In this document: positions 24,955 through 45,905 of the stretch, in pieces
Layout: each line of letters opens with the position of its first letter
How positions within the stretch are numbered: position 1 is the first letter of the stretch
Origin: Candidatus Pacearchaeota archaeon
GTDB lineage: Archaea > Nanobdellota > Nanobdellia > Pacearchaeales > GW2011-AR1
Assembly (NCBI GenBank): GCA_018304105.1
Contig: JAGVWX010000019.1
Coordinates: forward strand, 1,411 to 65,410
Reading direction: 5' to 3'
DNA: 64,000 nt
Program-made: the position numbers and the translations under genes
Notes under the pieces: model-generated
The model's database searches: none
What the model saw: the letters and a program-made list of their open reading frames with translations, nothing else
Told to the model about the DNA's origin: nothing

Positions 24955-24991
24955 TTGGGATGCTTTGCGTGATTTGCATAGGAGACGAAAG

Positions 24992-26879: not shown

Positions 26880-27108
26880 ATGGTATGAATTTTCCCAACC
26901 AATTACACGCATACGCGCTGGATACATCACATACGTGGTGCTTTTACGGGGTTCATTCCACTTACAAGTTATATAGAACATGGAGTTATATAAAACTTTT
27001 GGTTTAGAAAGTATGGAAAAAATTAAGTTAACAGAACCCGATGGTACTGAAACGCGCATCTCAAGGTGCACTGACCAGCAGGCTTTACCTGTTAGTAACT
27101 TCAGGCTT

Positions 27109-27159
27109 TTGGATATTATAAACCTTTCGGGCAACACTGAGTTGGGAGAACTAAGAATG
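27109..27159 (+). repeat. third copy of the GT4 promoter module
   Basis: ttggatattataaacctttcgggcaacactgagttgggagaactaagaATG aligns with 29335-29385 (ttgaattatataaatctttcgggcaacgccgaattggggaaataagatATG). Sequence after the ATG is unrelated. Confidence 0.7.
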
Positions 27160-27264
27160 GAAGGAAATGCTGATTGCGAGAGACGGAGGACAACAGATGA
27201 AGATGAAGAGGGAAAGTTTAAATATCCCAAAGAGGGGATAATATTATCTCATATTTGTAGGAAC

Positions 27265-27873: not shown

Positions 27874-28002
27874 GTGGAAAGAAGCTTTGGCGAATGGCAA
27901 AATTTATAAACAGAACGCTCTTGGAAGATTTAGAATGTTCCCCAGTGATCCTATGGGGTCGCTGGATGATTTTATCTTTAATCTTGCTGGAGGTGTCTGC
28001 TA

Positions 28003-28680
28003 ATGGAAGATACATTAGTTTTTGTTGATGAGGGTTTCTTAGATAAATTGACTAAGTTTTTTGGCGAGGGTATTAGACTAAAGTTTGACAAACTCGGCTT
28101 TGCAAGAAGAATCGCCAAGAAGCAGAATTTGTTTTGCAAGCACTTATTTTATTATACCTGCCCGCCGTTTCAGTCAACAAGCCCAACAGATGAAGAAATA
28201 AAGAGAAGAAGAGGATATGATAAATTTGTTTCTTCTATAAAAAAGAACAAAGAAGTTACGGTAAGAGAGGGAAGATTGCAAAAAATAATCAATGAAGCCG
28301 GAGAAATTGAGTTTAAACAAAAAGGGGTTGATACACTACTAACTATTGACTTAGGCCATACAAGAGAGGATTATCCCAGCATTAAGAGAGTAATTTTGGT
28401 CTCTTCTGATACGGACTTTTGCCCGATTATCCAAGACATAAAAAAAAGGGCAGGAATAGAAGTAATCTTGTATAGCTATTTTGATAGAACAAGAAAATCA
28501 AAGTTTTCTCTATCCAACGAATTGCTAAAGTGCTGTTTTAAGTATGTTAAGCTAACGAAAGAAGATTTTACATCCTGCCCGATAAGCAATAAAGACGATG
28601 AAGGAAAGAGAAAGAGCGAGAGCAACGAAAGAGGCAAGGAAAAAGACAATGAAGAGAGGGGTGAGGGAGATGGAGAATGA
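28003..28680 (+). CDS. NYN (LabA-like) domain protein with acidic/basic C-terminal tail
   Basis: LVFVDEGFL...QKGVDTLLTIDL...VILVSSDTDFCPIIQDIKKRAGIEVILYSY reproduces the NYN/LabA acidic residue pattern. Confidence 0.7.
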   Translation: MEDTLVFVDEGFLDKLTKFFGEGIRLKFDKLGFARRIAKKQNLFCKHLFYYTCPPFQSTSPTDEEIKRRRGYDKFVSSIKKNKEVTVREGRLQKIINEAGEIEFKQKGVDTLLTIDLGHTREDYPSIKRVILVSSDTDFCPIIQDIKKRAGIEVILYSYFDRTRKSKFSLSNELLKCCFKYVKLTKEDFTSCPISNKDDEGKRKSESNERGKEKDNEERGEGDGE

Positions 28681-28697
28681 GCGCGGCATTGATGAGT

Positions 28698-28749
28698 ATG
28701 AGTAAGAGAAAGCTGCTTGTGTTTGCTTCGACGTTTCCGAGATGGAAGA
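28698..28749 (+). repeat. copy of the first 52 nt of the GT4 gene
   Basis: atgagtaagagaaagctgcttgtgtttgcttcgacgtttccgagatggaaga is identical to 29383-29434. It then diverges and is fused to the start region of family X copy B. Confidence 0.85.
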
Positions 28750-28768
28750 CGATGAAGGAGATGGGACG

Positions 28769-29227
28769 ATGAAAGACTTTGATTATTATATTTTTATTGA
28801 TTATTCTGAAAATTTAATTGGTTATGCAATAATTGAAGATGAAAAATTGAAAGAGCTTCTTCCTAACCTAACCAGGTTTAAACATTATCGCTCTTCTGGC
28901 GATAGGATGTCTTACCTTCGGCATATTAAAAAGACAATTGAACGCGACGATATAAAATCTTTTTTTCTTAAATTAAAAATAAAAGAAATGCGCAAGAATA
29001 TGGAAATTCATCTTGATGTCCTTGAATTTCTGAAAACGCATGAGAATTGCATTATTTTTATTTCGGTTGATAACAGCCAGTATTCTGCTTTTAGAAAAAT
29101 GGTAAATATTGTTGACGGAAAAGACATAATGATAAAACAAGAAAGCGAATTAAAAGAAGGAACACCAGAATATCAGGTAAGTCTTGTATTGGATAATTTG
29201 CTAAACATAGAGAGGTTAAGAAAATGA
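28769..29227 (+). CDS. uncharacterised ~152-aa protein, family X (copy B)
   Basis: MKDFDYYIFIDYSENLIGY...NCIIFISVDN... is a paralog of 24992..25459. The internal ATG is preferred by alignment with copy A. Confidence 0.7.
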   Translation: MKDFDYYIFIDYSENLIGYAIIEDEKLKELLPNLTRFKHYRSSGDRMSYLRHIKKTIERDDIKSFFLKLKIKEMRKNMEIHLDVLEFLKTHENCIIFISVDNSQYSAFRKMVNIVDGKDIMIKQESELKEGTPEYQVSLVLDNLLNIERLRK

Positions 29228-29334
29228 TAAGTAACAAGTTAGCATACAGGGTAAGGGCGTCCGTCTATCCTACTCCCCATAACAAGATATGGCTTTCGTC
29301 AGGTCGCTTTCCCCTATACAGTTTATTGAGCTGT

Positions 29335-29382
29335 TTGAATTATATAAATCTTTCGGGCAACGCCGAATTGGGGAAATAAGAT
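29335..29382 (+). promoter_or_regulatory. promoter of the GT4 gene (master copy of the duplicated module)
   Basis: TATA-like ttgaattatataaa about 35 nt upstream of the ATG at 29383. Same module at 25572 and 27109. Confidence 0.55.
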
Positions 29383-30597
29383 ATGAGTAAGAGAAAGCTG
29401 CTTGTGTTTGCTTCGACGTTTCCGAGATGGAAGAAGGATACGATTCCGCCTTTTGTTTATGAGTTGAGCAAGAGACTTGTAAAGGGATTTGATGTTACTG
29501 TTTTAGCTCCGAGTTTTCCTGGAGCGAAGGAAGAGGAAGTCATGGACGGAATGAAAGTCAAGAGATTTCATTACGGGCTTGGAAGATATGAAACGCTGGC
29601 GAGCAACGAGGGAATTTTGCCCGCGCTGAAGAAGAGCAAGTGGAATTATTTTAAGATTCCTTTCTTTTTGCTTGGGGAGTTTTTTGCGTTGAGGAAAGAG
29701 ATTAAGGAAAATAGGCCCGATATGATTCATGCGCATTGGATTATCCCTCAGGGTTTTGTTGCGGCGATTTGCAAGAAGTTTTATGGGACGAGGTTTGTGG
29801 TTACGACGCATGGCGGAGATATTTTTGGCTTGAGAGGATTTGTCTCTAGGATGAGCAAGAGATTCACATTGAGAAATGCGGACAAGATAACGGTTGTAAG
29901 CAATGCGATAAAGAAAGAGATTTTGACTACGCTGAATCCGAAGCTGAAAATAGATGTGGTTTCTATGGGAGTTGACAGCAAGAAGTTCAATCCGAGGCAG
30001 AGAGACGACTCCATAAAGAAGAAGTACAAGATTGGCGAGGAGTTTTTGCTTTTTGTCGGGAGACTTGCGGAGAAGAAAGGAGTTAAGTATTTGCTTGAGG
30101 CGATGCCGGATGTTTTGAAGAAATTTCCGAAAGCAAAACTTTTAATTGTGGGCAGTGGTCCTTTGGAGAAAGAGCTAAAGGAGATTCACAAGAATTTGAA
30201 ACTTAAAGACAGCGTGGTTTTTACAGGCGCGATAGCAAATGCAGAACTTCCGAAGTATTATGCAACAGCAGATATTTTTGTTGGGCCTTCAATTGAAGCG
30301 AGAGGAGGGGATAAGGAAGGGTTAGGCCTGACTTTCGTTGAAGCTGGAATGTCTGGAGCATTAGTTATTGCAACCGATTTGGAAGCTATAGCAGATGCTA
30401 TTCAAGATGGCAAGACTGGGTTTATTGTTAAGCAGAAAAATTCTAAAGAGATTGCCAAGAAGATTATTTCTTTATTGGGTTCTAAAGACAAGATGGGCAA
30501 AATGCAGAAAACAGCGAGGGCAGAGTTGGTAAAGAAGTTTGACTGGGATGTTGTGAGCAAGAGATACGATGAAATTCTTGGAGGGGTGGGGAGATGA
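29383..30597 (+). CDS. GT4 family glycosyltransferase
   Basis: 404 aa. GT-B pattern with GGD, GRLAEKKG and the EGLGLTFVEAGMSGALVIATD (E-x7-E region). Confidence 0.85.
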   Translation: MSKRKLLVFASTFPRWKKDTIPPFVYELSKRLVKGFDVTVLAPSFPGAKEEEVMDGMKVKRFHYGLGRYETLASNEGILPALKKSKWNYFKIPFFLLGEFFALRKEIKENRPDMIHAHWIIPQGFVAAICKKFYGTRFVVTTHGGDIFGLRGFVSRMSKRFTLRNADKITVVSNAIKKEILTTLNPKLKIDVVSMGVDSKKFNPRQRDDSIKKKYKIGEEFLLFVGRLAEKKGVKYLLEAMPDVLKKFPKAKLLIVGSGPLEKELKEIHKNLKLKDSVVFTGAIANAELPKYYATADIFVGPSIEARGGDKEGLGLTFVEAGMSGALVIATDLEAIADAIQDGKTGFIVKQKNSKEIAKKIISLLGSKDKMGKMQKTARAELVKKFDWDVVSKRYDEILGGVGR

Positions 30598-31560: not shown

Positions 31561-33129
31561 ATGAAATACAAGGAGATATTCTTTTGGATAACAGTTATTT
31601 TGTTTGCGTTTCTTATTTCGATTATTACAAGACAAACTAATGCAACACCTTCTCAGCTTTTAGATGCAAATCAAAATTTATTTTTCTCTAAAAATATTCT
31701 TGTATCGGGAGATTTGAGTTATGTAAATCCTTACAATGAAAAATATTCTCAAATTTTTGGGTTTAGAACAACATTTATCGATGGTGGTGGGTTAAACTTA
31801 CCCGCAACACATTTGGGGTATATTTACGTTTTGTCTATTTTTAGGCTTGCTCTATTAGATGAAATTTTTTTCATCACGTTTTTTCTGTTGGTACTCTCTG
31901 CAGCATATGTAAAGAAGCTAGCTACTTTGTTATTTGATGCGAAAACAAGTTATATTGCTGTTATAGGATTTTTATTTTTCTCTTCAGTAATCTATTGGTC
32001 AACAGCTTATATCAATGATGTTGCGGCATTATTTTTCTTTATCGTTGCAATGTATTATTTTTTCAGATATTTAGAAAGTGAAAGACAGATTGAAGGAATT
32101 CTGTTTGCTCTTTTTTATTTTGTAGCTGTCTTCATTCGGTTTTCCTATTTACCTGTTCTGGTGTCATTTGTAATTGCGTTTGTCTTTGTAAGAAAACCAA
32201 ATAAGAAAGCACTATTTGTCGGATTATTTTTGTTTGTTAATATTCTTTTGTTGTTTATCTTTAATTTTTTTAATTACAATTTTTTTCTAGGCCCCGTCAG
32301 TAATCAAGTTTTAAGAAGACTCTCTCCAAATATAATCAGTAAAGATTCACTAGAAGGTGTTTCTTTAGTTTCTAATTTTTTTGTGTTTTCGAATTCTGAA
32401 GTTTTTATTAACAATATAAAGAATTATCTGCTAGGTTTGCAGATAGTATTTTTCTTTGTGCCAAGTCTTATAACGGTTTTTAAGGGACTACAGAAGAAGA
32501 ATAGAAATTTGCTTCCCTTTTCTTTGTTCTTTGTTACAACTGTTTTAATTTTGGCCTCTTTATATCTTGGAAAAGAATGGTCTGGATATAGTTCTACTTT
32601 TTTAATAAATTCTATGTACACCAGATATCTTCTACCGATGTATCTATTATTCATTATTGCCGGGAGTTATTCTTTAAGAAAGTATCTCTCTAGGTTCAGT
32701 AAAAGTTTTGCAGTAGTCTTTTTAGTTGGATTTATAATTATGTTTATGGCCATTAACTTTCAATTAGTTTCTCCTCAGTTAAATTATAACTCGGGTCTTG
32801 ATTTTGAGAGGAAATTTAGTATTGATGTAATTAATAATACAAATGGGGATTCGGTTATTTTCACGACCTATTTTGATAAATACTTATTTCCTACTAGGCA
32901 AACGGCAATATATACTACTTTCGAGAAAGACACAAGAAAAGAAAATACAGCTAATTTAATTAAAGATTTGTTAGCCGATGGTAAGGAAGTTTATTTTATT
33001 GATGAAAATTATTTAAAAGATTACGATGAGTTTACTTTGAAGGATGATTATTTTCCATATTTTACAAAAGCCGGTTTAGAACCAAAGAATGTTTCATTTA
33101 GGCTCTACAAAATAGAACTTACAAAATGA
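31561..33129 (+). CDS. polytopic membrane protein, possible GT-C type glycosyltransferase
   Basis: More than 10 TM helices followed by a soluble C-terminal domain, within a glycosyltransferase operon. Function is inferred from context only. The ATG at 31561 is preferred to the listed TTG. Confidence 0.5.
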   Translation: MKYKEIFFWITVILFAFLISIITRQTNATPSQLLDANQNLFFSKNILVSGDLSYVNPYNEKYSQIFGFRTTFIDGGGLNLPATHLGYIYVLSIFRLALLDEIFFITFFLLVLSAAYVKKLATLLFDAKTSYIAVIGFLFFSSVIYWSTAYINDVAALFFFIVAMYYFFRYLESERQIEGILFALFYFVAVFIRFSYLPVLVSFVIAFVFVRKPNKKALFVGLFLFVNILLLFIFNFFNYNFFLGPVSNQVLRRLSPNIISKDSLEGVSLVSNFFVFSNSEVFINNIKNYLLGLQIVFFFVPSLITVFKGLQKKNRNLLPFSLFFVTTVLILASLYLGKEWSGYSSTFLINSMYTRYLLPMYLLFIIAGSYSLRKYLSRFSKSFAVVFLVGFIIMFMAINFQLVSPQLNYNSGLDFERKFSIDVINNTNGDSVIFTTYFDKYLFPTRQTAIYTTFEKDTRKENTANLIKDLLADGKEVYFIDENYLKDYDEFTLKDDYFPYFTKAGLEPKNVSFRLYKIELTK

Positions 33130-33827
33130 ACAATAAAATTACTACGGCAATCGACGGAAGACTAAAGAAATCAATCGTCTTATTGGGAGATTTGACTGGC
33201 AAGAAAATATTAGACGTTGGGTGTAAGGCAGCGTGGCTGGAAAACTATCTCAACGACCACAAGACAAAACTTAAGGAAATGCATTCGTTTGACGTAGAGA
33301 ATTATGATTTTCCTAAACTTGGAAAGAAGTTTCATTTTGCTATTGATTCAGTATTGGATATGAAGAGATATTTCGGAAAAGATTTTGATGTGGCTACATT
33401 CTTTGAAGTGATAGAACATATACCGAAGAATACAGAGTTACAAGCTTTGACGAACATAAGGAAAACTTTGAAGGTTGGTGGGAAGCTTTATTTGTCGACT
33501 CCAAACAAAAGTCTTTTTTCAAATGCTCTTGATCCAGCTTGGTGGCTTATAGGCCATAGACATTACTCCGAGAAAGAACTGAGGAAGATGTTGGAAAAAG
33601 TTGGTTTTAAGATAGTTAAGTCAGAAGTCCGAGGAGGATTTACGGAGTTGATCGCTATGGACACTTACTATTTATTCAAGAATGTGTTTAGAACGAAAAG
33701 GTTTGGTTCTAACTTGTTTAAGGATAAAAGAAATAGTGATTATTTAGATAAGAACAAGAAAGGATTTGCTACTCTGTTTATCGTTGCAGAAAAGACTAAG
33801 GAAAAGAAAAATAAAACTCTCCCCTAA
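33126..33827 (+). CDS. class I SAM-dependent methyltransferase
   Basis: ILDVGCKAAW (motif I-like), FDVATFFEVIEHIP, GGKLYLSTPN. The last four codons and the stop are contributed by repeat element R1. Confidence 0.65.
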   Translation: MNNKITTAIDGRLKKSIVLLGDLTGKKILDVGCKAAWLENYLNDHKTKLKEMHSFDVENYDFPKLGKKFHFAIDSVLDMKRYFGKDFDVATFFEVIEHIPKNTELQALTNIRKTLKVGGKLYLSTPNKSLFSNALDPAWWLIGHRHYSEKELRKMLEKVGFKIVKSEVRGGFTELIAMDTYYLFKNVFRTKRFGSNLFKDKRNSDYLDKNKKGFATLFIVAEKTKEKKNKTLP

Positions 33828-33910
33828 ACCCTTAATCTCAACAGCAGTTCTCATCTCAAATGGGACGGACGCCAATTTAGTTCTGGTTAGCTCTGGTTAG
33901 TTCTGCTGGC
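33814..33910. repeat. cassette-boundary element, copy R1
   Basis: aaactctcccctaaacccttaatctcaacagcagttctcatctcaaatgggacggacgccaatttagttctggttagctctggttagttctgctggc. Near-identical copies at 36018, 36889 and 37692. Confidence 0.9.
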
Positions 33911-34060
33911 TGTGTTGTGATTTGCTTGGTTCTGCTTGGTTCTGCTTGGTTCTGCTTGGTTCTGCTTGTCTTGCTAATTGCCTTACTTGCTTTGTCGTGA
34001 TTTGCTGACGATGTGAACGACATGTGAATGACTTGTGAGTGAGGAGAAGAACGAAGTGAA
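33881..34060. repeat. phased 10/11-bp degenerate tandem array upstream of a promoter
   Basis: ttctggttag ctctggttag ttctgctggc ... tttgcttggt (tctgcttggt x3) tctgcttgtc ... then gatgtgaacga catgtgaatga cttgtgagtga ... agtgaacga. The top strand is almost free of A over 33881-33970. Confidence 0.85.
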
Positions 34061-34076
34061 CGAAAAACATAAATAG
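34061..34076 (+). promoter_or_regulatory. BRE/TATA promoter variant (cgaaaaacataaatag)
   Basis: Identical 16-mer at 38958. 20 nt to the ATG at 34097. Confidence 0.55.
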
Positions 34077-34096
34077 CCGAGATTGCTGAATGAGAG

Positions 34097-34438
34097 ATGG
34101 AAAAACGGAAGTTTGTCTTCATGTATGATGATTTCTCAGATAGGCTGCTAATATCATGCAAAGATAAAAATGAGACCATTTCTGGGAGTGCGAGGGTTCT
34201 GAATCTTGTTCTTACATTTACAACCAATAATAAAGTTGTTGGCATAGAGCTAAAAAATGCCTCTAAGTATCTGGAATCACTAAGAATAAACCCTAAGATA
34301 TTGAATAATCTAAGCAACGCAGAGATTGTTTTTCAGCAGCAAAGAGATGGGTATCTGATTTATTTTATTCTTTATGCAGGAGAAGAAGTGGAAAGAGTCC
34401 CCTATAACGTAATATCTAGAGAACCTATCCTGAATTAA
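34097..34438 (+). CDS. DUF2283-like small protein
   Basis: 113 aa. FVFMYDDFSDRLLISCKD...VVGIELKNASKYL. Paralog of 39811..40158. Confidence 0.65.
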   Translation: MEKRKFVFMYDDFSDRLLISCKDKNETISGSARVLNLVLTFTTNNKVVGIELKNASKYLESLRINPKILNNLSNAEIVFQQQRDGYLIYFILYAGEEVERVPYNVISREPILN

Positions 34439-34770
34439 CTTTTCTTGAGTCTTTTATCCAGACTTCTTTTATACTCTACTGCATGGATGATTAAAACTCC
34501 CTTGTCTTTAGGGCAGGTGGCAATTGAGAAATAGGTGCCGTTGCTTAAATTGTAAAATAATTCATAGCCTATGTCTCCATATTTTAATGTGTCTTTTTCT
34601 ATTTCAGTCACTTTATCAAATTGGGGGAATACTTCAAGCACTTTTTTATGTTCAATTCCCTTCTCAGCAATGCTTAATCTGTAATAGCTTGTAAAAATTA
34701 ATTTCTTTCCTTTGATTTTCTCTGTGATTATCTTCTGGATTTCCTCTTTTTCTGAGATGATTTCAGTCAT
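34435..34770 (-). CDS. convergent partner of the DUF2283-like gene (DUF4258-like, putative toxin)
   Basis: 111 aa. YYRLSIAEKGIEHKKVLEV loosely resembles the HA-x-x-R-x-x-ERGI region of DUF4258. TTAA stop-stop overlap with 34097..34438. Own TATA (tttataac) ~24 nt upstream. Confidence 0.5.
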   Translation of the reverse strand: MTEIISEKEEIQKIITEKIKGKKLIFTSYYRLSIAEKGIEHKKVLEVFPQFDKVTEIEKDTLKYGDIGYELFYNLSNGTYFSIATCPKDKGVLIIHAVEYKRSLDKRLKKS

Positions 34771-34854
34771 CTCTTTTTTGACTTATTCAGAGTTATAAAT
34801 TTTCCCTATAAAATTTTTATAGCCCATAATTATTCTAGGCAAACTTAGAAAATA

Positions 34855-35045
34855 AAACTCTCACTTAAATCCATCATCTCTTCTTCCCAATAGGACTCAC
34901 CATGCTTCGAGGCTGTGAGTCTTGATTATTGCCCGCCCCTAAATCCATCATCTCCCCTATACTTCAATAGGACGCCTGTTTTATTTTGCTGACGAATTGC
35001 TGACGAATTGCTGACGATGTGAGGGGTTTGTGAATGAGAGGGGAA
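34855..35045. repeat. cassette-boundary element, diverged copy R6, with covarying hairpin and 3 x 11-bp repeats
   Basis: aaactctcacttaaatccatcatctc... Hairpin gactcac (34894-34900) / gtgagtc (34915-34921) followed by ttgattatt. ttgctgacgaa x3 at 34986-35018. Confidence 0.75.
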
Positions 35046-35062
35046 CGAAAGGGTTAAATAAT
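35046..35062 (+). promoter_or_regulatory. consensus BRE/TATA promoter (cgaaagggttaaataat)
   Basis: Identical 17-mer at 24010 and 39775. 20 nt to the ATG at 35083. Confidence 0.6.
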
Positions 35063-35082
35063 AGAACAACAATAACAACAAC

Positions 35083-35208
35083 ATGACAAAGAAGAAATTA
35101 ACGGGGAAGAATGAGAGAAAGGTTGAAGAGTTGAAGGAAATTATTCTTTCTATTAGAAACGATCCTGTGGCTATGAAACAAGTTAAAAAGTTAGCTGTTG
35201 CCTGTTAA
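35083..35208 (+). CDS. 41-aa small ORF downstream of the consensus promoter (not in the supplied ORF track)
   Basis: MTKKKLTGKNERKVEELKEIILSIRNDPVAMKQVKKLAVAC. Sits at the exact promoter-ATG spacing seen for seven other genes. Converges on, and overlaps by 18 nt, the PIN gene. Confidence 0.4.
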   Translation: MTKKKLTGKNERKVEELKEIILSIRNDPVAMKQVKKLAVAC

Positions 35209-35664
35209 GAAACTTCTTTTTAGATCCTTATATGTGTAAAAGGTTGGAGTTCTTATCTTTTTTCTTAGGTTAATTATCTTATAAGCATTTATTGCCCTTG
35301 GATGTTTTAATGTTTTTTCATCGTCAGAGAAGATTAAATCAAAGTTATACAAACTGGCGCAGGCAACAATTTTGAAGTCATTTCCGATGTTTGCCCAGTT
35401 CTTCACGCCATTGTTTGCTTTGTATTCTGAAAAATACTGCTTTGCCAGTTCTTTAATTTGTTTGTTCTCTTGAATCATTGTCCCCTTAACTAACTTATCA
35501 TATACTCTTAGGATACTTGGAGCTTTCCTTAGCTCATCTCTGATTAGCCTGAAATTATGAATTACGAATCGATTATCTGGAGCAATTTTTTCAACGAGGT
35601 TTATACCTTCTGCATCTTCAATTATTTTCCCATAGATATTTGTGTCTAATAATACATTCGCCAT
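35191..35664 (-). CDS. vapC: PIN domain protein (VapC-like toxin)
   Basis: 157 aa. N-terminal VLLDTNIY with the first PIN aspartate, and a later FDLIFSDDEK acidic cluster. Own TATA atatatttaaac ~28 nt upstream. Confidence 0.65.
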   Translation of the reverse strand: MANVLLDTNIYGKIIEDAEGINLVEKIAPDNRFVIHNFRLIRDELRKAPSILRVYDKLVKGTMIQENKQIKELAKQYFSEYKANNGVKNWANIGNDFKIVACASLYNFDLIFSDDEKTLKHPRAINAYKIINLRKKIRTPTFYTYKDLKRSFLTGNS

Positions 35665-35743
35665 CTTTGAACATAGAAACAGTCTGATTGTTTAAATATA
35701 TTTACATTGGTAAACCATTTAATCACTACAGAAGCGTCGAGAA

Positions 35744-35929
35744 CTACCTCTTTTGTCTCCATTTCATTATTTCGTCTTCGCCTTTCCACGAACCGCTTTT
35801 TTTACTGAGCGCATTTTGGGCGCTTACAGCCCTTGTCAGATTATTTTTCTTTCTCAATCGCCCGGCTACCAAAATCTCTATTTTATTTTTTAAGAGGCGC
35901 AATTCTTTGCCATTTATTTCCTGTTCCAT
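35744..35929 (-). CDS. VapB-like antitoxin candidate
   Basis: 61-aa basic protein immediately upstream of the PIN gene on the same strand. The SGSWKGEDEI motif is typical of small archaeal antitoxins. Confidence 0.5.
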   Translation of the reverse strand: MEQEINGKELRLLKNKIEILVAGRLRKKNNLTRAVSAQNALSKKSGSWKGEDEIMKWRQKR

Positions 35930-36017
35930 TGCTTGCTAACAGCATCATCGCATATAAATTTTTGGTTATCTTAGTTTTGCTTGGATATTACGATGTTGAA
36001 GTTGTTGCCCCTTAAGG

Positions 36018-36116
36018 AAACTCTCCCCTAAACCCTTAATCTCAACAGCAGTTCTCATCTCAAATGGGACGGACGCCAATTTAGTTCTGGTTAGCTCTGG
36101 TTAGTTCTGCTGGCTG
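36018..36116. repeat. cassette-boundary element, copy R2
   Basis: Near-identical to 33814-33910. Confidence 0.9.
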
Positions 36117-36167
36117 CGTTTGGCTTGTGAACGAAACAATTAAAAGCATTTGAAAGCAAACTATTGT

Positions 36168-36383
36168 ATGGCTGCTAGTGTATCTCCTTCGGAAATGAAT
36201 TATGAGTTTTATGTAGAAAGTGATATGAGCAAATACATCGGAGAATGGGTTGCGATTTTTGAGGGGAAAGTAATTGCTCACGGAAAAAATATAAAATTGG
36301 TTGCTGAAGAAGCAACAGCCTTAGCGAAAGGAAGAAAAGTCTTGTTTGCTCGCGTGCCAGATAAAGCAGCGATGATATTTTAG
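36168..36383 (+). CDS. DUF5678-like small protein
   Basis: 71 aa from the ATG at 36168 (TATA caattaaaag ~25 nt upstream). YIGEWVAIFEGKVIAHGKNIKLVAEEA...ARVP matches my recollection of DUF5678. Confidence 0.6.
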   Translation: MAASVSPSEMNYEFYVESDMSKYIGEWVAIFEGKVIAHGKNIKLVAEEATALAKGRKVLFARVPDKAAMIF

Positions 36384-36384
36384 A

Positions 36385-36813
36385 ATGACTATCACGTTTA
36401 AGTATAAGAGAATAAGACGACCTGACAATTCAGAGATTAAGACGCCTTCTATTTTAGTAACTTTTGGTGGAGCCGGAGCAAAATACGACTTTATGGTCCT
36501 TGTTGATTCTGGTGCAGATGTTTCGGTTATTCCGAAATCCATAGCGGAATTACTTGGACTGAACTTGGCGGGAGAGGAAGAAGAGGCGTCTGGAATAGGC
36601 GGTGTTGTCCCTGCGGTAGAAAGCAGTGTGCAGATAGAAATACATAAAGGGCATGAACATTATTCTTTTGTCCTTCCTGTTAAAGTTATCCTTGACGACA
36701 GCGATTTTCCAATTCTTCTGGGAAGGGAAGGATTTTTTGATAAATTTGTTGTAACATTCAATCAGTCAGAAGAGAAATTAATTTTAAAGAGAGTTCAAGA
36801 GGGCAGTTATTAA
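36385..36813 (+). CDS. retropepsin-like (clan AA) aspartic protease
   Basis: 142 aa. FMVLVDSGADVSVIP contains the D-S/T-G-A catalytic motif. ILLGREGFF is a flap/dimer-type C-terminal motif. Starts 1 nt after the DUF5678-like stop. Confidence 0.75.
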   Translation: MTITFKYKRIRRPDNSEIKTPSILVTFGGAGAKYDFMVLVDSGADVSVIPKSIAELLGLNLAGEEEEASGIGGVVPAVESSVQIEIHKGHEHYSFVLPVKVILDDSDFPILLGREGFFDKFVVTFNQSEEKLILKRVQEGSY

Positions 36814-36888
36814 GCCGATTATCTGTTGAAATTCTTTGGCAGTTTTCTCTTGAGTTTATTCTTCTTTGAGGTCTCGGAACAGAAAATG

Positions 36889-37079
36889 AAACTCTCCCCT
36901 AAACCCTTAATCTCAACAGCAGTTCTCATCTCAAATGGGACGGACGCCAATTTAGCTCTGGTTAGTTTTGCTGGTCTTGCTCGCTTTGCTTGTTAATTGC
37001 CTTACTTGCTTTGTCGTGCTTGTTTTGCTGGCTGTGTTGTGATTTGCTGACGATGTGAGGGGTTTGTGAACGGCTATGG
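36889..37079. repeat. cassette-boundary element, copy R3, plus phased array
   Basis: Core near-identical to R1, followed by ctctggttagttttgctggtcttgctcgctttgcttg...gatttgctgacgatgtgaggggtttgtgaacgg. Confidence 0.9.
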
Positions 37080-37096
37080 GAAAGAGTTTAAATAAT
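37080..37096 (+). promoter_or_regulatory. BRE/TATA promoter variant (gaaagagtttaaataat)
   Basis: 19 nt to the ATG at 37116. Confidence 0.55.
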
Positions 37097-37115
37097 ATAC
37101 ACGACTGGATAAAAC

Positions 37116-37334
37116 ATGGAGAGAATTGTAATAAACAATGAAGTCTTGGCAGGGAAGCCCATAGTGAAGGGAACAAGAATATCTGTAGAATTTATATTGG
37201 AAATGCTGTCTTCAGGAATGAGTATCGAGAGGATTTTGGAAGAATACCCTCATCTGAAGAGGGAAGATATATTGGCCGCTTTGGAATATGCAGCAAGGAT
37301 TTTTAAAAGAGAAGAATTTTACAGACTTCAATAA
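37116..37334 (+). CDS. DUF433-like antitoxin candidate
   Basis: 72 aa. LAGKPIVKGTRISVEFILEMLSSGMSIERILEEYPHLKREDILAALEYA is the characteristic DUF433 pattern. Confidence 0.75.
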   Translation: MERIVINNEVLAGKPIVKGTRISVEFILEMLSSGMSIERILEEYPHLKREDILAALEYAARIFKREEFYRLQ

Positions 37335-37335
37335 A

Positions 37336-37692
37336 ATGAAATTCCTTACTGATGAAAATGTGGCAGTTTCCGTCGTTGGATTCTTAAGGCAAGAAGGATT
37401 TGATGTGAAAGACGTAAAGGAAGAGTTGTTGCATGGCTCTCCAGATAGAGAAATTTTCGAGCTTGCAAAGAAAGAAAATAGAGTTGTTCTAACGCATGAC
37501 AAAGATTTCTTGGAGATTGTAAAGAATTACACTTCTGATTTTGAGGGGATTATTTTAATAAAGTGCAAAAAACAAAGTCCAGAAAACGTTATCGCAACTT
37601 TAAGCAAACTCATAGACTCTGAGGCAATTAAAAAAATTAAAAATAGTCTGTTTATTTTGAATGAAGAAGAATTAGTAATAATTAGAAAATGA
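37336..37692 (+). CDS. DUF5615-like (PIN-like/Mut7-C type) toxin candidate
   Basis: 118 aa from the ATG at 37336 (MKFLTDENV...LTHDKDF). Typical partner of DUF433. The listed upstream start overlaps the DUF433 gene and is rejected. Confidence 0.7.
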   Translation: MKFLTDENVAVSVVGFLRQEGFDVKDVKEELLHGSPDREIFELAKKENRVVLTHDKDFLEIVKNYTSDFEGIILIKCKKQSPENVIATLSKLIDSEAIKKIKNSLFILNEEELVIIRK

Positions 37693-37790
37693 AACTCTCC
37701 CCTAAACAAATCATCTCAACAGCAGTTCTTATCTCAAATGGGACGGACGCCAATTTAGTTCTGGTTAGTTCTGGTTAGTTCTGCTGGCTG
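37692..37790. repeat. cassette-boundary element, copy R4
   Basis: aaactctcccctaaacaaatcatctcaacagcagttcttatctcaaatgggacggacgccaatttagttctggttagttctggttagttctgctggctg. Begins at the stop codon of the preceding gene. Confidence 0.9.
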
Positions 37791-37927
37791 CGTTTGGATG
37801 GTACGTTTACAGACGCTGATTAACGCTTTGTTGAAAATCTGTCTTTTCTTGGCTGTTTGCTACTCACCAGCCACATTTAAAATCCTTGCCACCAAAATCT
37901 TTTAAACTTCAATAAACTGAACAAATT

Positions 37928-38839
37928 ATGGAAAAAGAGAAAGATGAAGTTGAAGACAGGAAAGAAGGTGACAGGGAAAATGACGAGGAAGACGGCACCC
38001 ATATTGCCATTTTTAATGGGAAACGCATAAGAAAGCGAATGGTGAATGGTGAATGGTTCTTTTCTATCGTAGACATTGTCGGAGTCTTAACTGAAAGTTC
38101 TCGCCCTAGAAAATATTGGTCTGATTTAAAATCTAAGTTAATAGACGAAGGTTCAGAGTTGTCCGCAAAAATCGGACAACTGAAATTTAAGTCTAGCGAT
38201 GAAAAAGATTATCTAACAGATTGTGCCAATACAGAAACTATTTTCAGAATAATTCAATCAATTCCTTCTAAAAAAGCAGAACCTTTCAAAAGATGGCTGG
38301 CAAGAGTTGGTTATGAAAGAATTCAAGAAATAGAGAATCCCGAGTTGGCACAAGAAAGAATGAAAAAATTGTATGAACTAAAAGGATATTCTAAAGACTG
38401 GATTGAGAAAAGATTGAGGGGAATTGCAGTTAGGCAGGAGCTTACAGATGAATGGAAAAATAGGGGGGTTAAAAAAGAAATAGAATTTGCTATTTTGACC
38501 AATGAAATAAGCAAGGCAACATTTGACAAGACTGTTGAAGAATACAGGAAATTCAAAAAGCTAAAACGCGAAAACCTGAGAGACCATATGGACGACTTGG
38601 AACTTATTTTTACTATGCTGGGGGAAGCAGCAACAACCAGAATTACTAAAACAAAAGATGTTCAAGGTTTTCCGGAAAATATAATCGCCGCAAAACAAGG
38701 CGGGGAAGTCGCAGGTAATGCACGAAGAGAATTAGAAGAAAAGACGGGAGAGAGTGTTTTATTAGAAGATAATTACTTAGACATTCCGGAAAAGCTAAAG
38801 AAAAAGAGGAAAAAGCTAATAGAAAACTTAAATGGTTGA
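37928..38839 (+). CDS. Bro-N domain protein, DNA-damage-inducible protein D (DinD)-like
   Basis: 303 aa. GEWFFSIVDIVGVLTES..PRKYWSDLKSKL, PSKKAEPFKRWLARVGYERIQE, GYSKDWIEKRL, NLRDHM. This pattern matches Bro-N/DinD-like proteins. Confidence 0.7.
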   Translation: MEKEKDEVEDRKEGDRENDEEDGTHIAIFNGKRIRKRMVNGEWFFSIVDIVGVLTESSRPRKYWSDLKSKLIDEGSELSAKIGQLKFKSSDEKDYLTDCANTETIFRIIQSIPSKKAEPFKRWLARVGYERIQEIENPELAQERMKKLYELKGYSKDWIEKRLRGIAVRQELTDEWKNRGVKKEIEFAILTNEISKATFDKTVEEYRKFKKLKRENLRDHMDDLELIFTMLGEAATTRITKTKDVQGFPENIIAAKQGGEVAGNARRELEEKTGESVLLEDNYLDIPEKLKKKRKKLIENLNG

Positions 38840-38957
38840 AACTGGCTTTAGTAATCAACAAAGCCGGATTTGCTGAAATGGGATGCATTTGCGACGCTGG
38901 AACTGCAACACTAGAACTTGCGATATAACGATGTGAATGACTTATGAACGAAGGGAA

Positions 38958-38973
38958 CGAAAAACATAAATAG
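38958..38973 (+). promoter_or_regulatory. BRE/TATA promoter variant (cgaaaaacataaatag)
   Basis: Identical to 34061-34076. 20 nt to the ATG at 38994. Preceded by gatgtgaatgacttatgaacgaaggg repeats. Confidence 0.55.
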
Positions 38974-38993
38974 TCTAAATTGCTGAGTAAAAG

Positions 38994-39251
38994 ATGGAAA
39001 AGAAAATTGAATTGGATATTGTAATTTATCCAGAGGGCAAGGGAAAAGATAAAGTTTACAGCATAAGCTCTGTTCAGGTACCTAATGTTGTAACGCAAGG
39101 AGATACAATCGAAGAGGCAATAAGCAGGTTAAGAGAAGCTTTAGAATTATACTTTGAGTCTGTTCCCTATGAAAAAGATAATTTGATAAAAATAACGGAA
39201 GATGAACAAGAGGGCTGTAATAACCCGATGATTAGCAGGATCTTTCTTTAA
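38994..39251 (+). CDS. hicB: HicB-like antitoxin
   Basis: 85 aa. VVTQGDTIEEAISRLREALELYFE. The C-terminus NPMISRIFL is paralogous to 25920..26183. Confidence 0.7.
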   Translation: MEKKIELDIVIYPEGKGKDKVYSISSVQVPNVVTQGDTIEEAISRLREALELYFESVPYEKDNLIKITEDEQEGCNNPMISRIFL

Positions 39252-39496
39252 TATCTTAGTAATTCATTTAACTCTTTTAAAATTTCTTCGTTTATTCCAG
39301 CTTCCCTGCAATTGCGGATTAAATTTTGTCTAACTATATTTGATGGTTGTTTTACATTGACTAAAATGATTGGTCGTTTCAAAGGAGGATTTCGATTGAG
39401 CTTAATATGATCGCCCCTCATGTGTTCAACATAGAATCCCTGTTTCTCCAAAATAGAAATCACTTTACTTATTATCGGTTTGAAATTATACTTCAT
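39248..39496 (-). CDS. hicA: HicA-like toxin, convergent with hicB
   Basis: 82 aa from the ATG at 39496 (TATA agtttataat ~22 nt upstream). VISILEKQGFYVEHMRGDHIKL resembles the HicA pattern. TTAA stop-stop overlap at 39248-39251. Confidence 0.65.
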   Translation of the reverse strand: MKYNFKPIISKVISILEKQGFYVEHMRGDHIKLNRNPPLKRPIILVNVKQPSNIVRQNLIRNCREAGINEEILKELNELLRY

Positions 39497-39559
39497 CTTT
39501 TTATTACTCAGAGGACGATTATAAACTTTTTCTATAATTTTTTGTAGTTGCAACCCTCG

Positions 39560-39706
39560 TATTTTTTATTCCCGCATTAAATCGTCAATCATCTCAGCAC
39601 TCGTCCTCATCTCCTAAGCTCTTCACTTCAACAGCAGTTATTATCCCAAATTGGACGCCAATTTAATTCTGGTTAGCTCTGGTTAGTTCTGCTTGGCTAT
39701 TACGGA
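39560..39706. repeat. cassette-boundary element, diverged copy R5
   Basis: ...cttcaacagcagttattatcccaaattggacgccaatttaattctggttagctctggttagttctgcttggc. Contains the perfect palindrome aaattgg-acg-ccaattt. Confidence 0.8.
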
Positions 39707-39774
39707 TAGATACAATCATCGAGGGATTTTGCTCATTTCATTTGCGTGTGAGAAAACGAGGAGAACGGCGAGGG

Positions 39775-39791
39775 CGAAAGGGTTAAATAAT
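39775..39791 (+). promoter_or_regulatory. consensus BRE/TATA promoter (cgaaagggttaaataat)
   Basis: Identical 17-mer at 24010 and 35046. 20 nt to the ATG at 39811. Confidence 0.6.
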
Positions 39792-39810
39792 CTTCATCAT
39801 CAATATAATC

Positions 39811-40158
39811 ATGAGTAGCAGGTTTTATTATGATGCTGATACGGATGATGTTATCATCTCGAATAAGCTGGACGATGAAAAAGTGAAAAAGAACTATATT
39901 TTTGATGATTTTGTTATTAGTGTTGCTGGAAGCGGGAAGATTGTTGGATTAGAGATAAGGGATGTTTCCAAGTTTCTTAAGGATTCTGGTTTAGACCTGG
40001 GCTTTTTCAAGGATATAAAAGAAGTTGAGTTAGTAATTGTTCCTAAAAGAGATTCTATCGGAATCTATATTTATCTGACAATCTTTTGCAAAGAGGGGAC
40101 TTTTGAGAGAAGGATTCCCATTACTCACCTACCTGCAGAAATTGTAGCCAGCAATTAA
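39811..40158 (+). CDS. DUF2283-like small protein
   Basis: 115 aa. FYYDADTDDVIISNK...IVGLEIRDVSKFL. Paralog of 34097..34438. Confidence 0.65.
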   Translation: MSSRFYYDADTDDVIISNKLDDEKVKKNYIFDDFVISVAGSGKIVGLEIRDVSKFLKDSGLDLGFFKDIKEVELVIVPKRDSIGIYIYLTIFCKEGTFERRIPITHLPAEIVASN

Positions 40159-40439
40159 ATCATCTTCTTCCAATATCTTTTTGCCACTGCTTTTGCAAAA
40201 TTCTTGAAGTTCTTTTCTGCGGCAAAAGCATTTATCAATTCTGGCGGCTTTTTGTCTAGATTAATGGCATAGACGAGATAAGTTCCATCTTCCTTTTCAT
40301 AATGGAAATCGTAATTGTTGTATCCAGACGGCCTTTTCCTGTAAAAAATCATCTTTATTTTTTCAAACTTTGGAAAATAATTTCTTAGTTCGTCTTCGTT
40401 CGTGTTTTTTTCTGCAACGGAAACTTCATAATACTGTTT
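40155..40439 (-). pseudogene. 5'-truncated copy of the convergent DUF2283 partner
   Basis: The reading frame extends upstream of the listed Met to a stop at 40440-40442 with no start codon. The extension (KQYYEVSVAEKNTNEDELRNYFPKFEK) aligns with residues ~28-55 of 34435..34770. The shared promoter block ttataaattttccctataaaa is still present at 40487-40507. Confidence 0.6.
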
Positions 40440-40575
40440 CTATTGTTTCCTCTGTTCTCATTTTTATCTGACGATTTTAAATATTATAAATTTTCCCTAT
40501 AAAATAATTATAGTTACTTTAGTTAAGGCCCTTGATTTTGCGAAGTTTTAAAAACCATTTTATTTCAGTAGTAAC

Positions 40576-41727
40576 ATGGCAAGGGTCAAACAACTTATTT
40601 CAGTTGGAATTATCCTGGTTTTTCTAGCATGGCTTGGATACTACGGCTATGCTCACAGAAGTGATTTTGCTGAATTGACACTCGTAAGTCCGTGGCTGAT
40701 TATTGTTTTGGTATTGGGAACGCTGGTTTCGTATCTGGCTATAAGCTACTTGAATAACGTCCTCATGCAATCATTCGGCGTGTACATGAAAATGGGCGAG
40801 AGCTTCATGCTGTCGGTTGTGACGGGCTTCTACAACTTGATAACGCCATTCCGAGGGGGAATGGCGGTACGGGCGGTGTATTTGAAAAAGAGATATAGCT
40901 TTGCGTATGTGAACTTTCTTGCTTCGCTTTCTGCGGTTTATGTTCTGACTTTCCTTGTTGCCTCGCTTCTTGGAATTGTCTCAACGGTTTGGATTTATTA
41001 TCAAACTGGAATGTTCTCTTGGATACTCTTTGTGATATTTGATGTTGTGTTTATTGGAATGGTTGGAATTATATTTGTGTCGCCGAAGTTTAAGGAATAT
41101 GATATTAACCCACCCTCCTCGCGGTCACGCTCGCAAGTTGTAGATAAAATTCACTCGCGTGACACGCTCGCCCACCCAGACGGAAAATATAGCACCAATA
41201 ATTATAACGCCAGAAATTACAACGCAAATCTTAAGAGCAGGGGCAGAAGAGATAATGGGAATGGAGATGATAATGGAAATAGCAATTGGAAAACGGGCTT
41301 GAGAAAATGGCTGAACAGATTTATTAAAGTTATTAATGGATGGCATTTGATTAAGAAGAACGGGAGAGTGATTTTAGTTACTAGCTTTGTGACGCTTGTG
41401 CAAATCTTGCTTGGAAGTTTGATGCTCTGGTTTCAGTTTAAAGTTTTTGGTGTGGATATATCGTTCATGGCTGCGATATTTTTGTCTGCGATTGGTTCGT
41501 TAAGCATTTTGATTGGACTAACTCCCGGGAATCTTGGAGTTCAGGAAGCGATTACTGTTTTCTCGGCTGCGACGATTGGAATTTCAACTACTGAATCGCT
41601 TTCTGCTGTTTTGCTTGGTCGCGCGGTTGGCTTGGTTGTGCTTTTTGTTCTTGGGCCGATATTTTCTTATGTTCTTATGAGAAGCAAAAAGAAAGGAGAT
41701 GTGAAAAATGTCAGACGAAAGAAGTAA
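40576..41727 (+). CDS. UPF0104/flippase-like (lysylphosphatidylglycerol synthase TM region-like) membrane protein carrying an in-frame repeat insertion
   Basis: 383 aa, about 8 TM helices. RGGMAVRAVYLKKRY and LTPGNLGVQEA motifs. The central loop, encoded at about 41104-41300, is made of dispersed-repeat sequence. Confidence 0.65.
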   Translation: MARVKQLISVGIILVFLAWLGYYGYAHRSDFAELTLVSPWLIIVLVLGTLVSYLAISYLNNVLMQSFGVYMKMGESFMLSVVTGFYNLITPFRGGMAVRAVYLKKRYSFAYVNFLASLSAVYVLTFLVASLLGIVSTVWIYYQTGMFSWILFVIFDVVFIGMVGIIFVSPKFKEYDINPPSSRSRSQVVDKIHSRDTLAHPDGKYSTNNYNARNYNANLKSRGRRDNGNGDDNGNSNWKTGLRKWLNRFIKVINGWHLIKKNGRVILVTSFVTLVQILLGSLMLWFQFKVFGVDISFMAAIFLSAIGSLSILIGLTPGNLGVQEAITVFSAATIGISTTESLSAVLLGRAVGLVVLFVLGPIFSYVLMRSKKKGDVKNVRRKK

Positions 41728-45538: not shown

Positions 45539-45905
45539 CTGGATTTTTGGAGGAATTGCAGTTTTTATCGTGCTGGAAGTTGTTACGGTAATTCTCGGGG
45601 TTGCGACGGAGATGACTTATCTTGAAAGCTTTAGGGTTATTTTTGGGAGCGTGTATGTTTTGTTTGTGCCCGGACTGGTCTGGAGCTTTGTGTTTTTTCC
45701 TTTTGGGGAAAAGAAAGTAGACATTATTGAAAGAATTGCGCTTTCGTTTGCACTGAGCATTGCAATTGTTCCGTTGGCTGTTTTCTATTTGAATCTAATT
45801 GGACTGAAGATTTCGGCGTGGAGCAGTTTTCTTGTTGTTCTGGTTTTGATTATTGCCGGGTTGTCGGTTGTAATTTTGAGACGGAAGCGCCGTGTTTTTG
45901 AATAA
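45507..45905 (+). CDS. small integral membrane protein
   Basis: 132 aa with four hydrophobic helices and a basic C-terminus RRKRR. Last gene of the 40.6-45.9 kb membrane operon. Confidence 0.55.
   Translation: MFWRKKMKGISWIFGGIAVFIVLEVVTVILGVATEMTYLESFRVIFGSVYVLFVPGLVWSFVFFPFGEKKVDIIERIALSFALSIAIVPLAVFYLNLIGLKISAWSSFLVVLVLIIAGLSVVILRRKRRVFE

Follow-up and report, generated by a model that had tools for sequence, protein, structure and literature searches.

Archaea of the DPANN group (Diapherotrites, Parvarchaeota, Aenigmarchaeota and Nanoarchaeota, together with Nanohaloarchaeota) have tiny genomes for which few recognisable mobile elements are known, and the ways in which they gain and turn over defence and toxin-antitoxin (TA) genes are poorly understood. 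A stretch of 64,000 nucleotides from a Candidatus Pacearchaeota archaeon (assembly GCA_018304105.1, contig JAGVWX010000019.1, positions 1,411 to 65,410 of the forward strand), hereafter the window, brings this question to a single locus. Seven small TA- or defence-type modules are stacked between a methyltransferase gene and a gene for a flippase-like membrane protein of the LPG_synthase_TM family, and an element of approximately 100 nt recurs at their borders. What is this element, and how did the modules come to lie there? The initial annotation had read the locus as an integron-like cassette platform. The platform was correctly recognised; its 'recombination element' is re-identified here as a duplication of the target gene's 5' end.

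The window is archaeal, with TATA boxes preceded by a B recognition element (BRE/TATA promoters) and a G+C content of approximately 38%. The source organism is a Pacearchaeota archaeon (DPANN), and the closest relatives of the window genes are annotated as Pacearchaeota, Woesearchaeota or Nanoarchaeota. One window protein is identical to J4233_04650, a hypothetical protein from a Candidatus Pacearchaeota archaeon. Other loci and contigs are cited by number (L001 and so on), and J0 to J6 denote the module junctions listed in Table 1.

A repeat search revealed a 115-nt direct-repeat family at 33810–33924, 36014–36128, 36885–36999 and 37688–37802 (77–100% identity to the reference). These four main copies were 93–99% identical (99%, 97.5% over 81 nt and 93.6% by blastn), and a diverged copy (39606–39698, 82%) and a weak copy (34846–34880) could also be found. 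The four near-identical and two diverged sites of the initial annotation were therefore confirmed, as were their positions relative to stop codons and minus-strand starts. The first copy contains the end of the methyltransferase gene (33126–33827; ...N K T L P and the stop), and the copy at 36885 lies approximately 72 nt downstream of the protease stop. Modules ending in a plus-strand gene adjoin the next pseudo-start as genes do in operons; the DUF5615 stop (37690–37692), for example, overlaps the element ATG (ATGA, 37689–37692). The copies at 34846, 36014 and 39575 follow the starts of minus-strand genes. The earlier list of copies was incomplete, as a further flippase-derived fragment is present at 35930–36013. 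No other copy was detected by blastn of the element against the whole 64 kb, none in GTDB genomes by an exact-pattern scan, and none in a scan of viral contigs; a scan of JGI metagenomes matched L001 alone, which is the same locus. A likeness between the 3' ends of the methyltransferase gene (33770–33813) and the DUF5615 gene (37644–37691) was judged to be due to chance, and both C-termini are native to their families.

As judged from profile and in-register comparisons, the element is the flippase-like gene's 5' end in duplicated and decayed form, spanning about position −8 to codon ~36. Read from its ATG (36887, 37689), it encodes MKLSPK(P/Q)(L/I)ISTAVLI, the consensus N-terminus of the flippase family (compare MKPNKKLISTAVILIL in P0141). 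A protein profile built from the first 45 residues of 84 orthologues, with the window's own protein excluded, was compared with all 2,938 six-frame fragments of the window. The real gene ranked first and the copy at 37686 second, the latter being the best non-self match (MKLSPKQIISTAVLI, E 0.009, model positions 1–15). When stops were masked, further stretches became readable, namely LVLLAAFGWYVY (codons 15–26) within the 3' half of the copy at 37688, FLVILVLLGYY at 35960 and SIISALVLIS at 39585. In frame, 39684–39749 reads VLLGYYG, a stop and IQSSRDFAHFICV, and 39691–39733 is 84% identical over 44 nt to the real flippase gene of L013 (E 1e-5).

The real gene also came first (2e-22) when the window was compared with a DNA profile built solely from flippase 5' ends of other genomes (21 sequences), and the copies at 37689, 36886, 39683, 36017 and 33814 took ranks 2–6 (4e-4 to 0.12). 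These matches all fell on the plus strand, in a register that puts model position 1 at the pseudo-start. Flippase 5' ends of L016, L023 and L036 matched 34846–34880 at 77–83% identity, and cross-genome blastn matches could be observed to J1, J3 and J4 as well. The sequence GATTT(T)GCTGA(A), which stands ahead of most promoters of the array, corresponds to the most conserved N-terminal codons of the family, DFAEL (motif DFxxL). The homology is visible through profiles and in-register comparison, not through a harsh +2/−3 local alignment: a first DNA comparison of the element with the 5' end of L006 under that scoring gave nothing above shuffles. The flippase identity is assigned because of the rank, register and position of the copies, together with much stronger fragments in other genomes.

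Tandem Repeats Finder (TRF) confirmed the phased short repeats of the initial annotation as period-10 and period-11 arrays at 33877–33905, 33923–33968, 34011–34038, 34986–35017, 36081–36109, 37755–37783 and 39668–39691. These are slippage expansions of T/G-rich codons of the first membrane helix within dead coding sequence, with no evident regulatory array. The phasing, and the position of the element upstream of promoters, would fit an element that is functional in itself, whether as an insulator or terminator, as a small RNA or as a regulatory array lying upstream of the TA promoters and shared by them. Such a role is nevertheless highly improbable. The terminator scan remained at background level, and no fold was better than random. 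Rfam gave nothing in 33.7–40.7 kb at E <= 1 and, at gathering scores, two tRNAs only, both far off. The repeat number differs between samples, the copies decay at different rates, and other TA modules of the window use the same promoter without the element.

Integron cassettes are mostly promoterless, lie in one orientation and are expressed from the promoter Pc. In the array, as the initial annotation had noted, the cassettes carry their own promoters: a BRE/TATA-like box lies 20–30 nt before the first ATG of each module, each junction ends in one, and minus-strand genes occur in four of the seven modules. An integron, or a cluster of attC sites lacking integron-integrases (CALIN), with the element as a structured attC-type site and the integrase encoded elsewhere, would produce repeat-bounded, TA-enriched cassettes; the array is also alike in being a one-site stack of short unrelated cassettes whose repeat is more alike within than between genomes, and integrons and CALINs have been reported in Nanoarchaeota (Ghaly et al. 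2022, PMC9668308). However, when both strands were folded as single-stranded DNA, which had been suggested as a check for attC-like hairpins, six copies or strands gave z = +0.19 to +1.78, with one at −0.74, none better than shuffles. Neither IntI, sought over 84 kb, nor attI could be found, the cassettes bear promoters and run in both directions, and the repeat is a fragment of a neighbouring gene, homologous to its coding 5' end. An integron-like dedicated site is thus barely credible. A tRNA-derived att site was also considered and dropped, as ARAGORN found no tRNA near the array. No conserved inverted repeat was found at the module borders in the repeat search; no search with the 28-bp XerC/D dif model was made.

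Empty sites in relatives locate the array within its neighbourhood. The initial annotation had placed it between two glycosylation gene clusters; comparison with L006, L008 and L009 revealed one operon split by an insertion. In L006, whose methyltransferase is 70% identical, genes for a family 4 glycosyltransferase (GT4), a family 2 glycosyltransferase (GT2), a membrane protein of 526 amino acids (aa), the methyltransferase and the flippase-like protein follow one another without interruption, and the methyltransferase reading frame runs 11 nt into the flippase gene before its stop. The overlap between the upstream gene and the flippase start is 4 nt in L009 and L008; the methyltransferase orthologue is the overlapping gene in L006 and L009. 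Downstream, L009 and L008 have the same order as the window (PMT_2-like, ~540 aa, 126 aa, DUF1616, then ScpA), the flippase gene of the window being followed by PMT_2-like, 556-aa, 126-aa and DUF1616 genes. Because these three relatives show the empty site, the 6.7 kb from 33.8 to 40.57 kb can be shown, on the basis of gene order, to be an insertion exactly at the start of the flippase-like gene, within a conserved glycosylation operon. L006, L008 and L009, all of which are without the insert, have a single flippase 5' end, with which both the intact 5' end and the element copies of the window can be aligned. The same empty sites bear out the proposal of a repeat-bounded stack of unrelated modules gained by insertion at one spot. 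The 36-nt flippase leader (40540–40575) is also present in L013 and L016. As this leader and promoter are lacking in the empty-site genomes, the split operon and its flippase gene are probably re-driven from the right end of the last module.

Two further features were observed in this operon neighbourhood. A gene for a 1418-aa NHL/fn3 surface protein (window 45850–50106, minus strand) lies between DUF1616 and ScpA, which are nearly adjacent in L008 and L009, so it is another lineage-specific insertion. The flippase-like protein itself (383 aa) contains a low-complexity insert of ~70 residues rich in N, G, R and S (window 41090–41310, residues ~175–245); most orthologues (~310 aa) are without it, and P0124 of L008 (429 aa) has a comparable extension.

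Six clear element copies, one possible relic and the intact gene could be shown to bound the seven modules (Table 1). Pfam, NCBIfam and PADLOC were searched with every module protein. Among the family calls of the initial annotation, DUF5678 with the protease, DUF433 with DUF5615, and Bro-N held; HicB, HicA, DUF2283 and PIN stayed under Pfam's cut-off; and the 'VapB-like' protein, the 41-aa and 111-aa products and the second DUF2283-like protein had no match. Module 4 (DUF433 and DUF5615/PIN_10) is the recognised TA family pair, while the TA calls for HicB/HicA, for PIN with a small ORF and for DUF2283-like with its partner lie under threshold. The suggested TA/defence model search returned the candidate defence family PDC-S13 for Bro-N and a weak PDC-M52B match for module 3. 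The HicB/HicA module had been described as preceded by array and promoter only; its promoter stands, and a possible relic precedes it.

Table 1. Features of the array in window order (ORF, open reading frame; SAM, S-adenosylmethionine; model positions and ranks refer to the DNA profile of flippase 5' ends).
Feature	Coordinates	Strand	Details
Left flank, class I SAM methyltransferase	33126–33827	+	Methyltransf_23 5e-17; last four codons and stop in first copy
J0, pseudo flippase 5' end	33805–34045	+	pseudo-start ATA 33811; canonical copy 33810–33924; 10-nt slippage arrays 33877–33968; DFAEL-motif relic GATTTGCTGA at ~34000; DNA-profile match 33814–33855, model positions 4–45
Module 1 promoter	34046–34096	+	purine-rich stretch and BRE/TATA box; 88% identical to module 6 promoter (38946–39001) through ATG (repeat family D8); also matches L016 promoter region
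Module 1	34097–34770		DUF2283-like 34097–34438 (+), 4e-4, under Pfam's cut-off; convergent 111-aa partner 34435–34770 (−), no family match, 38% identical to 162-aa partner in L013
J1, diverged pseudo 5' end	34846–35020	+	tandem partial copies 34866–34898 and 34938–34973, then GCTGACGAATT three times, an expansion of the DFAEL codons; 83% identical to verified 5' fragment L016a (E 1e-4), 77% to real 5' end in L036 (E 3e-4)
Module 2	35083–35929		41-aa ORF (+), no family match; PIN-like, 157 aa, 35191–35664 (−), 4e-3, weak, under Pfam's cut-off; 61-aa upstream ORF ('VapB-like') 35744–35929 (−), no family match
J2a, separate, differently diverged fragment	35930–36013	+	flippase codons ~11–24 (..FLVILVLLGYYDV..); 35963–35992 77% identical to 40616–40645 inside real gene (repeat family D9); rank 8, model positions 44–73
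J2b, canonical copy	36014–36128	+	99% identical to J0
Module 3	36168–36813	+	DUF5678 36168–36383, 1e-10; retropepsin-like aspartyl protease 36385–36813, Asp_protease_2 2e-7; weak PADLOC PDC-M52B match
J3	36880–37075	+	canonical first 81 nt, ATG 36887, reads MKLSPKPLISTAVLI; then expanded T/G-rich remains and GATTTGCTGACGATG; profile E 0.002, model positions 1–45
Module 4	37116–37692	+	DUF433 antitoxin-like 37116–37334, 3e-25; DUF5615/PIN_10 37336–37692, 2e-24; stop overlaps J4 pseudo-ATG
J4, canonical copy	37683–37802	+	reads MKLSPKQIISTAVLI; other frame LVLLAAFGWYVY (codons ~15–26); profile E 4e-4
Module 5	37928–38839	+	single Bro-N/DinD-like gene; Bro-N 4e-8; PADLOC candidate defence family PDC-S13 8e-119
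J5, possible relic and promoter	38837–38993	+	TTGAAACT overlaps Bro-N stop; GGATTTGCTGAA at 38866; from reading and alignment; relic (38837–38886) not significant, no DNA-profile match
Module 6	38994–39553		HicB-like 38994–39251 (+), 2e-5; convergent HicA-like 39248–39496 or 39553 (−), 2e-5; both under Pfam's cut-off
J6, pseudo 5' end to codon ~38	39575–39755	+	reads KSSIISALVLIS / STAVII / VLLGYYG-stop-IQSSRDFAHFICV; profile E 0.006, model positions 52–102
Module 7	39811–40470		second DUF2283-like 39811–40158 (+), no family match, 25% identical to module 1 DUF2283-like; truncated partner 40155–40352 (−), remains to ~40470
Intact flippase-like gene, LPG_synthase_TM	40540–41727	+	gene 40576–41727; PF03706 4.5e-31; own promoter and leader 40540–75

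The promoters of such modules also recur elsewhere in the window. The exact 16-mer GAAAGGGTTAAATAAT is present at 35047 and 39776 in the array and also at 22212 and 24011. With one mismatch at 14889, it heads TA modules at 14889, 22212, 24011, 35047 and 39776, and further at 1601 of L013, usually directly after the stop of a plus-strand host gene (for example a RelE-like pair that follows HisRS, and HicB/HicA behind the gene of a 429-aa surface protein). Seven matches were found, a number that none of 100 shuffles reached; the 16-mer is either a cassette-borne promoter or a plain lineage consensus.

The same signature could be observed in other DPANN genomes. Flippase loci from GTDB species representatives were fetched (34), and 43 loci in all, some of them redundant, were searched using profiles of the N-terminus and of the full length. 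Three additional 5' fragments (E 1.6e-16, 1.4e-13 and 2e-3) were found in L016, placed between HepT, MNT/HepT and ParE modules that flank the intact gene on either side; L016 also shares with the window the junction of fragment and purine-rich promoter. In L033, a distant Nanoarchaeota metagenome-assembled genome, Fic, AAA_14-DUF4143 and AbiEi/AbiEii modules with 5' fragments between them lie immediately upstream of the intact gene, and another TA module, on the downstream side, is bordered by a duplicated flippase 3' end. Four 3' fragments (model starts 201, 137, 231 and 261) are present in L019 among PIN, DUF2283 with PBECR2, and MNT modules downstream of the intact gene; L013/L020 and L045 have one 3' fragment each. 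The outer end of a fragment was the gene end in every case. The inner end varied, lying at codon ~26–57 in 5' fragments (for example ~36, 41, 46 and 55) and at model position 137, 201, 231, 259, 261 or 279 in 3' fragments.

Two fragments of L016 are stop-free over 43–57 codons and strongly unlike the resident gene, one of them resembling the working 5' end of L023. Such sequence features imply that these fragments may be of foreign origin, having evolved as parts of functional genes elsewhere. An orthologue of module 7 in L013 (72% nucleotide identity, 79/115 aa) has a full 162-aa partner, which is truncated in the window, and lies beyond the other end of the flippase gene, with the intact 3' end on one side of it and the 3' fragment on the other. 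Its divergence is about that of the flippase gene between the window and L013 (74–75% nucleotide identity). The pair type of module 3 also adjoins the flippase gene in L010 and L011, and cassette content differs among related genomes. No integrase was found in the modules of L016, L019 and L033 or in 17 kb of L033, and no viral contig encoding a flippase relative was found.

TA-type modules of relatives were also seen at the flippase/PMT_2 junction, not upstream (L008 11315–12291, L010/L011, L033 8945–9540); these are MNT with a 146-aa gene, DUF5678 with a 139-aa gene, DUF6847 and a RelE-like pair. After its insert, L033 has a second copy of the last ~10 flippase codons and of a TATA box.

The array is probably the outcome of serial 'insertion with long target duplication' at the 5' end of the flippase gene. 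In each event, an incoming module would recombine within the first ~40 codons of the gene, leaving a truncated 5' copy on the left side and one intact gene on the right. Fragments would always reach the gene end because selection retains only those events that keep an intact gene. Modules would bring their own BRE/TATA promoters, and the flippase gene, together with the remainder of the split operon, would take its promoter from the right end of the last module. Insertion with long target duplication was described for bacterial restriction-modification (R-M) units, with an unsettled mechanism, and no archaeal case passed that screen (Nobusato et al. 2000; Furuta et al. 2010, PMC2853133). In both settings a selfish unit without a mobility gene is flanked by direct repeats of variable length (from tens of bp to hundreds) that can be aligned with a single-copy target in insert-free genomes. 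Its three features are found here, namely repeats of >30 bp matching a single-copy empty site, no mobile gene in the insert, and variable repeat length. Unlike the bacterial cases, the cargo is of TA/defence type, the target is always a gene end, up to seven events occurred at one gene, and the arrangement recurs across DPANN lineages. The second island of the window (24.0–29.4 kb), in which duplicated 5' ends of two other genes lie at module borders, is counted for this reading.

Site-specific integration of the e14/icd type would give a similar picture. Here an attB core would lie in the first ~40–57 flippase codons, and each element would carry a replacement 5' end that displaces the previous one, the recombinase acting in trans or having been lost. 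As with e14 or phage 21 in icd (icd/icdC) and with island accretion at tRNA genes, integration occurs in a gene, the replacement end comes from the element, the displaced fragment marks the far border, and repeated use of one site yields several partial target copies; e14, flanked by icd and the icdC fragment, is the precedent (PMC13626634). The targeting of the same gene in several distant lineages, the ending of five window junctions at one point beside the conserved DFxxL motif, and the stop-free, foreign-looking 5' fragments of L016, which resemble functional replacement ends, speak for it. We nevertheless consider it unlikely. Those elements are 10–100 kb long, encode an integrase and use a fixed core at a 3' end, whereas the modules here are 0.6–0.9 kb, 5' as well as 3' gene ends are involved, and there is wide variation in the inner end points. 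One cassette type is tied to a 5' fragment in the window and to a 3' fragment in L013. No integrase could be found in the modules, over the 84 kb inspected here or over 17 kb of L033, and no viral contig bearing the LPG_synthase_TM gene was found.

An origin in situ, by tandem duplication of 'flippase 5' end and promoter' units through unequal crossing-over or slippage, with small genes placed later and gene conversion homogenising four copies, would explain why those copies are 93–99% identical with identical borders, and why the mosaic promoter similarity extends through the start codon (D8). The fragment-to-promoter junction common to L016 also fits. It is quite improbable, however, as it leaves the arrival of unrelated genes unexplained, the fragments of L016 and L033 are too diverged and stop-free for local duplicates, and module 7 lies on the other side of the gene in L013.

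The favoured mechanism, at roughly even odds, is a homologous one. Circles carrying a cassette and a gene-end fragment would arise by recombination between two neighbouring fragment copies, and each would integrate by a single Campbell-type crossover into any sufficiently similar copy of the gene, by host recombination and with no dedicated integrase. The geometry of a single crossover fits what is seen, either a truncated 5' copy, insert and intact gene, or an intact gene, insert and truncated 3' copy. The varied inner ends, the foreign-looking L016 fragments, the position of module 7 in L013 and the lack of an integrase favour this route. Campbell-type insertion-duplication, which predicts exactly this geometry, is known from laboratory gene disruption and plasmid integration. 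To our knowledge, it has not been documented as a natural route for the stacking of TA cassettes in archaea. More tentatively, with the balance somewhat against it, the gene-end fragments might be portable recombination handles of an integrase-free, 'homology-addressed' pool of TA/defence cassettes shared across Pace-, Woese- and Nanoarchaeota, each cassette looping out with one fragment and re-entering whichever genome has a similar gene.

The array was also followed in the population. The methyltransferase sequence is indexed in 56 collection blocks, with contigs of up to 148 kb, the same sequence having been assembled in many samples, and for two flanking genes the contigs read numbered 24 each. 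The array is identical at 99.9–100% in independent ENA, NCBI and JGI assemblies and is therefore no assembly artefact. The only differences between samples were the number of 10-nt units at 33923–33968 and a deletion in L001. GGTTCTGCTT occurs five times in the window and L004 and four times in L002, L003 and L005; one such unit in J0, where the window is longer, is the sole difference between the window and L002 in 8 kb. The JGI contig L001 has a 42-nt in-frame deletion in the HicA-like gene (window 39327–39368).

As the initial annotation had stated, no integrase lies in the window. Pfam was run on the larger ORFs of the window, and precomputed Pfam results were used for 10 kb beyond both ends; no integrase or transposase domain was found in the window proteins scanned or in the genes of these flanks, with no Phage_integrase match. 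The module proteins, scanned against all three collections, likewise contained no transposase, integrase or other mobile element.

Several observations weigh against serial insertion by long target duplication, or against its homologous form. The integrase inspection covers 84 kb of the genome, that is, the 64-kb window and 10 kb on each side. The homologous route would have to work in these organisms through only ~50–130 nt at 60–85% identity. Four copies share a left border (−8) and five junctions share a right border (between GATTTGCTGA and CGATGTGA), a pattern equally compatible with a fixed recombination core or with the spread of a single 'fragment and promoter' unit within the array; J2b, J4 and the fragments of L016, L019 and L033, however, end away from that right border, and later deletions are possible. 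The promoter stretches are mosaic between modules (repeat families D7, D8, D10, D12 and D13), which a simple crossover model does not predict. The profile E-values of the individual window copies are modest. Within the population, no presence/absence or order polymorphism of cassettes was seen among the 24 contigs per flanking gene, and no circular form or excision product was visible in its assemblies.

The second island lies at window 24010–29434, between a GT2 gene (22774–24009) and a GT4 gene (29383 onwards), and comprises PBECR2, HicA, MNT, NYN and other modules. The GT4 5' end (29382–29434) is repeated with 100% identity at 28697–28749, and its first 37 nt also at 25618–25654. The GT4 upstream region (29248–29377) is repeated at 25476–25614 (81–89%), and the promoter and 5' end of a 187-aa gene (26251–26334) at 24871–24954 (89%). 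L008 has only ~1.1 kb at this spot. Two paralogues of a 152-aa family (28769–29227 and 24992–25459, 48% identical) adjoin these duplications, and the non-coding copies 29248–29377/25476–25614 (81–89% nucleotide identity) are better conserved than the adjacent coding sequence of this gene X (48% aa identity).

The 152-aa family has no Pfam or NCBIfam match but has >500 homologues at 65–79% identity in Pace-, Woese- and Nanoarchaeota. An AlphaFold model (predicted local distance difference test, pLDDT, 89) revealed an RNase H-like fold, for which archaeal RNase HII was the nearest structure (Foldseek E 3e-5, template modelling (TM) score 0.52–0.57), and the invariant residues include D11, S13, D101, E125, E134 and D142. 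Gene X was considered as a candidate recombinase and dropped, since nothing links it to recombination.

Elsewhere, L014 (10 kb upstream of the window's start) contains a type I R-M locus whose genes (HsdR, HsdS, HsdM) are interspersed with NYN and NOV_C genes. Next comes a Fic gene (window 156–1397), of which a close homologue is one of the fragment-bounded modules in L033. Two secreted proteins with (GY)n tracts, at 15415–16278 (minus strand) and 20903–22192 (plus strand), the second with a long acidic N-rich tail, are probably surface proteins.

In a search of the literature, itself incomplete, on DPANN TA islands and on TA loci with flanking repeats, no description of this arrangement was found. 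New here are the TA/defence cargo, the occurrence in archaea, the restriction to gene ends, the arrays of up to seven modules and the use of one gene across lineages. The array and its counterparts in at least five other genomes represent a concrete, recurrent route of capture at the ends of one conserved membrane-protein gene, in which each event leaves a gene-end fossil with no integrase in sight. The fragments explain assembly breaks at such regions (L001 starts just past one copy and L004 ends within a junction), they preserve a readable order of events, and orphan gene-end fragments provide a simple search key for such islands in metagenomes. If driven by homology, the process would be a recombinase-free analogue of integron cassette capture, and it would extend insertion with long target duplication, so far a matter of bacterial R-M, to archaea and to TA systems.

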